DNA of 5,910 nucleotides from a virus (Duplodnaviria > Heunggongvirae > Uroviricota > Caudoviricetes): IMG/VR virus record IMGVR_UViG_2531839237_000018. One strand, written 5' to 3'. Shown here piece by piece: positions 4,601-4,786 of this stretch. Numbering within the stretch: position 1 is the stretch's first letter; every line of letters starts with the position of its first letter. A model generated the notes under the pieces. It made no database searches, was not told the DNA's origin, and saw only the letters and a list, made by a program, of their open reading frames with translations. The position numbers and the translations under genes are program-made.

Positions 4601-4786
4601 ATGTCATCGAAAAACCGGCCCCGCAGAACCACAATCCGCAATATCCGTTTCCCCAATCACATGATTGAACAGATCAATATCGCCCTTGAACATAAAGGTT
4701 CCGGTAACTTTTCAGCGTGGGTTATTGAAGCCTGCAGAAGAAGGCTGTCAACAGAGCGTTCGGGTATGAATTACATAATTAAGTAA
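4601..4786 (+). CDS. Small ribbon-helix-helix-like DNA-binding protein (resembles the DUF3950 / YlcI-YnfO prophage family; recalled from memory, not searched)
   Basis: 61-aa ORF MSSKNRPRRTTIRNIRFPNHMIEQINIALEHKGSGNFSAWVIEACRRRL...: basic N-terminus, a beta-strand-like TTIRNIRFP, then two helices. AGGAAAG 5-6 nt upstream of the ATG. Opposite strand to the late operon. Confidence 0.6.
   Translation: MSSKNRPRRTTIRNIRFPNHMIEQINIALEHKGSGNFSAWVIEACRRRLSTERSGMNYIIK

Follow-up and report, generated by a model that had tools for sequence, protein, structure and literature searches.

A conserved YlcI/YnfO family (DUF3950) gene of lambdoid prophages probably encodes a small ribbon-helix-helix DNA-binding protein

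A 5,910-nucleotide stretch of viral DNA (IMG/VR record IMGVR_UViG_2531839237_000018, Caudoviricetes; this whole stretch is called the window below) is a segment of a lambdoid prophage of ~50 kb from Escherichia coli O157:H7, and carries at positions 4601 to 4786 a small plus-strand gene for a 61 amino acid protein of the YlcI/YnfO family (DUF3950). We consider it probable that this protein is a functional small ribbon-helix-helix (RHH) DNA-binding protein that acts as an Arc/Mnt-like sequence-specific repressor, is encoded in a moron-like island and is made in the lysogen. Here we infer an RHH dimer, its mode of DNA binding, the repressor activity of this protein and its expression in the lysogen: the two-stranded β-sheet of the dimer (residues ~12-18, I-R-N-I-R-F-P) would enter the major groove, and the protein would act as a sequence-specific transcriptional repressor with P22 Arc and Mnt as its closest structural analogues. 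Since its gene runs opposite to the late operon, the protein would be produced chiefly in the lysogen, where late transcription is off. The gene is already known as an annotated member of a catalogued, functionally uncharacterised family, and as a feature of the window it is ordinary. What is new lies at the level of the family, namely a covariation between operators and specificity residues in satellite relatives and a conserved copy in phage lambda; the functional inference drawn from the covariation may be new as well. The family is present in lambda and in many Shiga toxin (Stx)-converting phages, under strong purifying selection and with no known function.

The open reading frame (ORF) is a real gene and not a chance reading frame. 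Its product matches Pfam PF13132 (DUF3950) with E=8.9e-20 and 70.7 bits (cut-off 25), which is above the curated threshold and shows that the initial annotation of this DNA, which had guessed at DUF3950, was right. It also matches NCBIfam NF041551 (YlcI_YnfO_N) with 34.8 bits (cut-off 30) and phrog_949, a family of unknown function, at E=8e-31, and RefSeq names the gene 'YlcI/YnfO family protein' in O157:H7 genomes (WP_001302295.1). A 601-bp stretch around the gene shows 100% identity to many O157 chromosomes. Of 5426 complete E. coli genomes, 1464 have matches to it, at a median of two places in each matched genome; related forms of the gene are thus present in roughly one in four of these genomes, often in multiple copies. 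Thirty diverse members show no variation at I15, R16, F17, P18, I25, F37, W40, V41 and C45; the window protein has all of these residues and keeps the core pattern I-R-F-P … F-S-x-W-V-x-x-x-C. Over its first 52 residues it shares ~85% identity with the lambda copy and with Qin-type YnfO-like alleles. Comparison of these 52 codons with the lambda allele gives 27 synonymous and 8 non-synonymous differences, with synonymous sites saturated, and against the more diverged lambdoid alleles dN/dS is 0.03-0.11. The gene is under strong purifying selection. Its most variable part is the tail from ~residue 50, which is swapped between alleles, and the protein sequence is conserved across genera.

The family is narrow: of 1.84 billion cluster representatives searched, only 95 score E<0.001. 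Among the 95 there are many error-ridden reads of lambda control DNA, which swell the family in protein databases. Sequences that look like homologues in Streptomyces, Cohnella, Flavobacterium, Enterococcus, S. aureus and a spider proved to be lambda DNA and were excluded (loci L086-L112, L118-L123, L132 and L142 and many proteins, P0216 among them; mostly contigs of ~3.5 kb, in our reading the nanopore control amplicon, which derives from lambda's right end). The genuine diversity of the family lies in the Enterobacterales and the Orbales, with members in Proteus, Providencia, Morganella, Serratia, Pectobacterium, Xenorhabdus, Rahnella, Gilliamella and Orbus. In the literature DUF3950, YlcI and YnfO have incidental mentions and no functional study. 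For example, YlcI/YnfO appears in gene lists of phage-inducible chromosomal islands (PICIs) that form capsids (PMC13612085).

An RHH fold is very likely for this protein; structure prediction, profile comparison and the satellite relatives described below agree on it, although the first two are individually weak. The layout predicted for the window protein is a basic arm (residues 4-11), a strand (~12-18, IRNIRFP), helix A (19-32), a GSGN loop, helix B (37-55) and the variable tail. An AlphaFold2 monomer run on a 30-sequence alignment gives extended residues 1-18 and helices at 19-32 and 37-55, with a mean predicted local distance difference test score (pLDDT) of 66, and this shape fits an RHH monomer because the RHH strand pairs only in the dimer. 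In Foldseek the matches to this model in the PDB are mostly RHH proteins, namely Arc (1par, 1myl, 1bdv, 1baz), NikR, ParD2, HicB, MazE6, PrpA and pCXC100 ParB. With Arc, ParD2 and MazE6 the alignments span 36-42 columns at 1.6-2.3 Å, with a target-normalised template modelling (TM) score of 0.61-0.70; NikR and HicB, whose chains are far larger, score ~0.26. In hhalign the NIRFP of the window protein falls in register with NLRWP of Arc, followed by helix A (P=0.009 with Arc alone, P=0.001 with a small Arc/Mnt alignment; the Arc query sequence was verified against the P22 record). Sequence and profile searches of the PDB found no related entry. The description of the protein as RHH-like in the initial annotation is therefore well supported by the AlphaFold2 model, the Foldseek list and the hhalign register taken together with the covariation described next, short of proof.

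Evidence for how such a protein may read DNA comes from its satellite relatives. Outside the Escherichia lambdoid phages most family members are found in integrative elements, where the gene order is a P4-type integrase, AlpA, an AntA/Bro-N antirepressor-like gene, DUF3950 on the opposite strand, small genes and a large primase. One annotated E. coli example is a P4-like element with an Icd-like gene, a 'Derepression protein' (P4 epsilon family), a DUF927 primase and an ogr/Delta gene; the second is an element like the capsid-forming PICIs (cf-PICIs). The satellite DUF3950 gene is divergent from the icd-to-primase operon and usually alone on its strand, and the satellite loci (L125-L164, L168 and L169; e.g. 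L138 5840-6003, L168 8780-8962) share a bidirectional control region. Upstream of the gene, 140 nt show the same elements in a constant order: a hairpin, a first repeat (R1), ~10 nt, a second repeat (R2), an invariant GTCAA, ~23 T-rich nt and TGTATAGTG leading into a third repeat (R3), followed by the ribosome-binding site and the ATG. A repeat search in independent satellite loci finds three or four copies with start-to-start spacings of 23 and 47 nt, and these are 12-bp near-palindromes, GTG-N6-CAC, whose central six bases are constant within an element and differ between elements. GTCAA corresponds to the -35 box TTGACG of a leftward promoter with an 18-nt spacer and the -10 box TA[AT]GGT. 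R2 occupies the spacer of this promoter, R1 covers its -10 box, and R3 overlaps the TATAGT box of the DUF3950 gene itself.

The central bases of these repeats follow the residues that are predicted to face them. Positions 12 and 14 (window numbering) are the equivalents of the DNA-contacting Q9 and N11 of Arc. Elements with T-K-G at residues 12-13-14 have the repeat GCAyAwACAC, those with Y-K-G have TTTAAAyAC, those with K-K-N have GTGCGCAC and those with R-K-D have GTCCGyACA. Over 24 satellite loci the distance between operator cores correlates with the differences at residues 12 and 14 (r=0.67; reached in 0 of 5000 permutations of a partial Mantel test), and its correlation with the divergence of the rest of the domain is r=-0.04. 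The E. coli P4-like element was examined afterwards; it has the Y-K-G signature and four TGTTTAAACA repeats, matching the prediction of the rule. A repressor that contacts its operators through the β-strand would be expected to covary with them in this way. On the basis of these sequences, the likeliest role of the satellite members is autoregulated repression of the replication (icd-primase) operon, and the same kind of role is the most likely one for the family. This gives a testable model for the satellite members, that of an Arc-like autoregulated repressor of the icd-primase operon; if true, satellite induction would gain a further control element, and the question would arise of what the phage-borne copies bind.

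The satellite layout can be compared with known repressor systems, a comparison that covers the satellite relatives and not the phage copy of the window. As in SaPI (Staphylococcus aureus pathogenicity island) Stl and P4 immunity, the satellite DUF3950 gene takes the slot divergent from the icd-epsilon-primase operon, with operators over both promoters, which is a layout as expected for a master repressor. Unlike this, DUF3950 is unrelated to Stl in sequence and fold, and P4 immunity acts through RNA. In the PICI literature consulted AlpA is the activator and no repressor is described; a preprint on cf-PICIs has AlpA as a required activator, and the word 'repressor' does not occur in its text (bioRxiv 10.1101/2022.09.08.507074). 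The likeness to Arc and Mnt of P22, on the other hand, extends to the window protein, which resembles them in size, in the register of its N-[IL]-R-[FW]-P strand motif, in its two helices and in the G-x-S/N turn ahead of helix B. Like the window gene, mnt is small, embedded in a late gene region and transcribed in the opposite direction, and it encodes a repressor, as the window gene is predicted to; Pant/Pmnt carry repeated operators over divergent promoters, as do the satellite relatives. The differences are that the sequence similarity is marginal (the hhalign P of 0.001), that the window protein has no match to the Pfam Arc model, and that the arc operator is 21 bp long whereas the inferred operators of the family are the 12-bp GTG-N6-CAC repeats with their spacings of 23 and 47 nt.

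Two further features of the satellites are described here. A hairpin of ~45 nt (GAAGCCCGG-N17-CCGGGCTTC, then a T-run) opens the icd-primase operon (L144 5832-5876, L168 8782-8815, L169 6001-6043). It is more than 90% conserved in ~460 of 5426 E. coli genomes, often under 'Icd-like' annotations; an Rfam scan gave no family for it, and by analogy it may be an immunity RNA or a leader element like C4 or CI. The second feature is a set of natural fusions. Four clusters of 127-129 amino acids (P0200, P0211, P0212, P0215) join DUF3950 to the N-terminal domain of Terminase_2. All four hold both domains in precomputed Pfam annotation, and P0200, when rescanned, passes both Pfam thresholds. The fused domain, which is C-terminal in P0200, has 60% identity over 50 residues with the N-terminus of the window terminase small subunit, TerS (BLASTP, E=2e-17). 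For P0200 and P0215 the contigs were read: both genes occupy the repressor slot in int-alpA-primase satellites that keep T-K-G-type operators. Fusion genes are located at L083 4714-5103 and L084 5717-6100. We read the fusions as putative repressors with an acquired TerS DNA-binding or sensor domain; they are a lead on interactions between helper phages and satellites, and are not evidence for a packaging role of the phage protein.

The phage-type proteins share the invariant core with the satellite proteins and have the strand signature T/I-R-N instead. Several observations weigh against the repressor explanation given above. The T/I-R-N signature never stands beside a recognisable operator array, and there are no GTG-N6-CAC palindromes, single or in arrays, near the gene in the window or in lambda. 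The 50-kb prophage has 15 loosely palindromic TG…CA 12-mers, which are unclustered, against ~10 expected by shuffling. The covariation comes from satellites and not from phages, and the 24 loci are not fully independent. As to the fold, the AlphaFold2 model is a monomer of modest confidence, the hhalign probability is just 4% (Arc alone) and 21% (Arc/Mnt), and the Foldseek E-values are ~1-10 with none significant. High E-values are to be expected at ~40 residues. A promoter scan found no site with at least 9 of 12 matches for the window gene, no consensus sigma-70 promoter was found upstream of it or of the lambda copy, and the -35 region that would match the best -10 candidate is not conserved among the alleles that have the HNH endonuclease gene as their neighbour. 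Finally, the literature holds no experimental evidence for any family member.

Other candidate targets in the phage DNA were also looked at. The palindromes near the gene, which had been suggested as binding sites, are unlike the inferred operators of the family. The imperfect palindrome over the stop codon (Table 1) lacks the geometry of a family operator, since its outer GTG and CAC are separated by 15 bp. It is missing in alleles whose homology stops at 4755, i.e. those with a different tail, and is not followed by a T-run; from its sequence it could form a hairpin between the convergent genes. The flanking repeats GGTGTTCAGAG/GGTGTTCACAG and CCGGTAAC (three copies) are at or near the number of chance pairs for 480 bp and are not conserved in alleles with other flanks, and they were rejected as operators. 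The 8- to 10-mers shared between the upstream regions of HNH-type and lambda-type contexts are at about chance level. In a test of cos linkage, lambda cosN was found upstream in lambda-type loci and was absent from satellites, and the presumed cos gap of the window has no meaningful match in satellites.

Relatives of the window gene are found in lambda and in other lambdoid prophages. A tblastn search of phage records finds in lambda a full-length 64 amino acid ORF (MSTKNRTRRTTTRNIRFPNQMIEQ…) at J02459.1 48109-48303 complement (L082 3110-3304, minus strand), which is unannotated in the original GenBank record and is called hypothetical or YlcI/YnfO in some newer lambda-like records. Its start is 199 bp from the right cohesive (cos) end, and it is convergent with the 68 amino acid ORF lambdap79, the YbcW homologue. 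The lambda 'orf-64' is a different ORF, between Q and S, and was rejected as the family copy. The distance from cosN (GGGCGGCGACCT) to the start codon downstream of it is 211-218 bp in lambda-type and Qin-type prophages. In lambdoid contexts DUF3950 is always the gene next to the packaging module and is oriented opposite to the late operon, an orientation common to the window, lambda, Qin-type prophages and Stx phages; as a small stand-alone gene opposite to its neighbours it is found in all of these and in at least 30 satellite loci.

Qin-type prophages encode a longer DUF3950 protein of 77 amino acids together with a DUF1398 gene (YdfO/YbcV; PF07166, E=1e-46) that lies 16-42 bp downstream on the same strand (L113, L114, L116 and L117 at 6001-6700, L122 at 4857-5560), an arrangement that suggests a two-gene operon. 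In lambda and DLP12 an oppositely oriented gene splits DUF3950 from DUF1398, and in the window DUF1398 is missing and no same-strand ORF with a family match lies downstream. The earlier statement that no partner toxin ORF follows the gene thus holds for this prophage window and does not extend to Qin-type relatives, in which DUF1398 can follow on the same strand 42 bp downstream. Compared with the K-12 homologues YlcI (DLP12) and YnfO (Qin), the window protein is alike in family and size, and its gene in position before the packaging module and in orientation against the late genes. It differs in its upstream neighbours, which are an HK97-type HNH gene, cos and Terminase_2 and not a lambda-type cos and Nu1, in the absence of a downstream DUF1398, and in its own C-terminal tail …STERSGMNYIIK.

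The ORF coordinates confirm that the gene is read opposite to the structural and lysis genes and that it begins 41 bp from the HNH start. This spacer is filled by back-to-back ribosome-binding sites, that of HNH and that of the DUF3950 gene, and since it is so occupied the -35 element of a sigma-70 promoter would fall in HNH codons. The idea that the promoter lies inside the HNH coding sequence is therefore reasonable, although no consensus promoter was found there. The best -10 candidate, in the spacer (Table 1), is also constrained as part of the ribosome-binding-site region of HNH. The Shine-Dalgarno sequence of the DUF3950 gene is kept in the HNH-context alleles. In K-12 RNA-seq data ybcW and ylcI are reported to form a convergently overlapping transcript pair (PMC12288877), which shows transcription from a silent prophage for at least this homologue, ylcI. 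The orientation of the window gene and this homologue together suggest that the window gene may likewise be expressed in the lysogen.

The gene lies between the lysis and packaging genes at the position of a moron, as the initial annotation had noted, and the base composition supports this. The guanine-cytosine (GC) content of the island is 33-46%, against 54-57% in HNH and terminase; within the island it falls from 44% to 33%, and the convergent 46 amino acid ORF sits in a stretch of 33-40%. When the window was compared with 80 viral contigs, the homology to it began exactly at 4592-4601 in ~35 of them, which makes this point a recurrent mosaic junction. Upstream of it these contigs have a lambda-type cos or other DNA in place of HNH. 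The junction coincides with the ribosome-binding site of the DUF3950 gene, and the same allele with its downstream low-GC DNA is found either behind HNH or behind a lambda-type cos. The allele and the low-GC DNA move jointly, so the gene travels with the island, in the manner of a moron. It resembles lambdoid morons such as lambda bor in its position between lysis genes and cos, its orientation against the late genes, its lower GC content and its mosaic edges. It differs from them in that it encodes a predicted DNA-binding protein and not an envelope or virulence factor, in being far more conserved among lambdoid phages than typical morons, and in that no clear flanking promoter or terminator was found around it.

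Other explanations for the phage gene can be weighed against the repressor explanation. One possible option, which we hold to be unlikely, is that the phage protein is a satellite master repressor that was captured and acts in trans, either silencing P4-like elements or PICIs or poisoning their repressor via mixed dimers. Such an origin fits a family that is standard and similarly placed in P4-like and PICI satellites (PMC13612085). It also fits the invariance between phage and satellite members of the core and presumed dimer-interface residues I15, F17, I25, F37, W40, V41 and C45, together with the difference between them at the DNA-contact positions. However, no satellite was found with operators that fit the T/I-R-N signature, the cf-PICI-type element L169 holds a much more divergent RHH protein (ARVP type), and among the 17 EDL933 prophages there is no inducer of the O157 cf-PICI EcCIEDL933 (bioRxiv 10.1101/2022.09.08.507074). 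The orientation against the late genes would also be odd for a factor that is needed in lytic growth. A wider proposal is doubtful in our judgement, namely that YlcI/YnfO proteins are unrecognised master repressors of a large class of P4-like and PICI satellites in Enterobacterales, with three or four 12-bp GTG-N6-CAC operators bound over divergent promoters, and that the cos-adjacent lambdoid copies, those of lambda and of this prophage included, are captured ones that act in trans in the conflict between helper and satellite, or that silence the packaging genes of the lysogen.

The position of the gene raises a quite unlikely explanation, that of an accessory factor of packaging which acts near cos or with TerS and modulates cos cleavage or protects cos in the lysogen. 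The gene is always the nearest to the packaging module, 199-218 bp from cosN in lambda-type prophages and adjoining HNH, the cos gap and TerS in the window, and nature has fused DUF3950 to a domain that is 60% identical to the N-terminal domain of this phage's TerS. Yet the same allele, with the same DNA-contact residues, stands beside two unrelated packaging modules, with the junction at its ribosome-binding site; the protein is hence not matched to a particular cos or terminase and shows no co-evolution with either, which counts against packaging specificity. The gene is moreover transcribed against the late operon that makes terminase, minimal lambda cos fragments package without the DUF3950 region, and the fusions seem to be repressors in the first place, since they retain the operator layout of satellites. 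RHH proteins are commonly antitoxins, and the gene could be the antitoxin or regulator half of a two-gene cassette whose partner was lost or swapped (DUF1398, or the 46 amino acid peptide here), which we regard as very unlikely. A weak HicB-like PHROG match (E=0.07), the DUF1398 gene 42 bp downstream in Qin-type prophages and the convergent small hydrophobic ORF in the window would agree with it. However, no toxin family was detected nearby, and PADLOC gave no meaningful toxin or defence match for DUF1398 or the 46 amino acid ORF and no defence match for the DUF3950 gene itself. The variable tail offers no conserved C-terminal extension for toxin binding, and most members, those of satellites included, stand alone, with strong selection on the stand-alone gene. 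Least credible, and in our view most improbable, is that the protein is unimportant and that antisense transcription or an embedded hairpin insulates the packaging genes from read-through in the lysogen. A terminator-like hairpin with a T-run does lie on the late strand within the 5' coding region, antisense to the codons of the basic N-terminal arm, and lambda has an equivalent terminator-like site in the same place (L082 3264-3284, plus strand); by its sequence such a hairpin could halt transcripts that are not antiterminated ahead of the packaging genes. The convergent ybcW/ylcI overlap in K-12 (PMC12288877) points in the same direction. But RNA-level selection alone would not yield a protein that is conserved across genera, and the saturated synonymous sites, the ~85% identity to lambda over 52 codons and the low dN/dS speak for selection on the protein.

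Table 1. Features of the window around the YlcI/YnfO gene (positions in the 5,910-nucleotide stretch).
Feature	Position	Strand	Basis or remark
TerL, terminase large subunit	1683-3344	-	credible gene
TerS, terminase small subunit	3341-3904	-	Pfam Terminase_2
Non-coding gap HNH-TerS, 289 bp, presumed cos region	3905-4193		GC dip to 46-47%
HNH endonuclease, packaging module, divergent neighbour	4194-4559	-	Pfam HNH E=5e-6, phrog_589, RefSeq
Divergent spacer between HNH start and DUF3950 start, exactly 41 bp	4560-4600		HNH starts at 4559
Weak -10-like TAAAAT	4561-4566		in the 41-bp spacer
HNH ribosome-binding site, GAGGA as reverse complement	4568-4572	-	in the 41-bp spacer
Shine-Dalgarno GAGGA of DUF3950 gene	4590-4594	+	6 nt (4595-4600) to ATG; read from sequence
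Low-GC moron-like island with DUF3950 gene and convergent 46-aa gene	4592-5210		GC drop, mosaic edge
YlcI/YnfO (DUF3950) gene, 61 aa, ATG start	4601-4786	+	family matches, RefSeq, purifying selection
Terminator-like hairpin and T-run, late strand, inside DUF3950 5' coding region	4616-4631	-	equivalent site in lambda
Imperfect palindrome, 31 bp, GTAACATGGTGTTC aca GAACACACAGTTAC, over stop codon	4783-4813		14-nt arms, 79% complementary
46-aa hydrophobic ORF, convergent to DUF3950 gene	4916-5056	-	RefSeq hypothetical protein
Promoter-like site TTTTCA-17-TATTAT, upstream of 46-aa ORF	5174-5146	-	promoter scan
80-aa ORF	5413-5655	-	credible gene
Rz	5661-5903	-	credible gene

The DUF3950 gene is the sole credible plus-strand gene in the window (Table 1). 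All others are on the minus strand, including a protease/capsid gene that comes last in the listed order, after TerL. The 46 amino acid ORF has no family match, and no plus-strand intrinsic terminator was detected for the DUF3950 gene. The gap between HNH and TerS holds no ORF with a family match, and cos would be placed in it by analogy with the known HK97-type gene order; the related phage records are all prophage-derived and do not display their termini.

Some minor observations were made in the same prophage. Outside the window, among the tail genes, there is an immI-like module in P22 style (L167 9609-11264) with two divergent Arc-family genes beside an Ant antirepressor gene. Since this module is separate, the DUF3950 protein is not the regulator of that Arc/Mnt/Ant system, and in contrast to P22 immI there is no adjacent ant gene that the window gene would control. 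At the lysis end of the window an 84 amino acid ORF (5198-5452, minus strand), unannotated in RefSeq, matches an Rz-like spanin family (phrog_6954, E=2e-13). Near it, at ~5397-5403, homology blocks of related contigs stop, and the ORF is probably what is left of a second spanin gene where mosaic segments meet.

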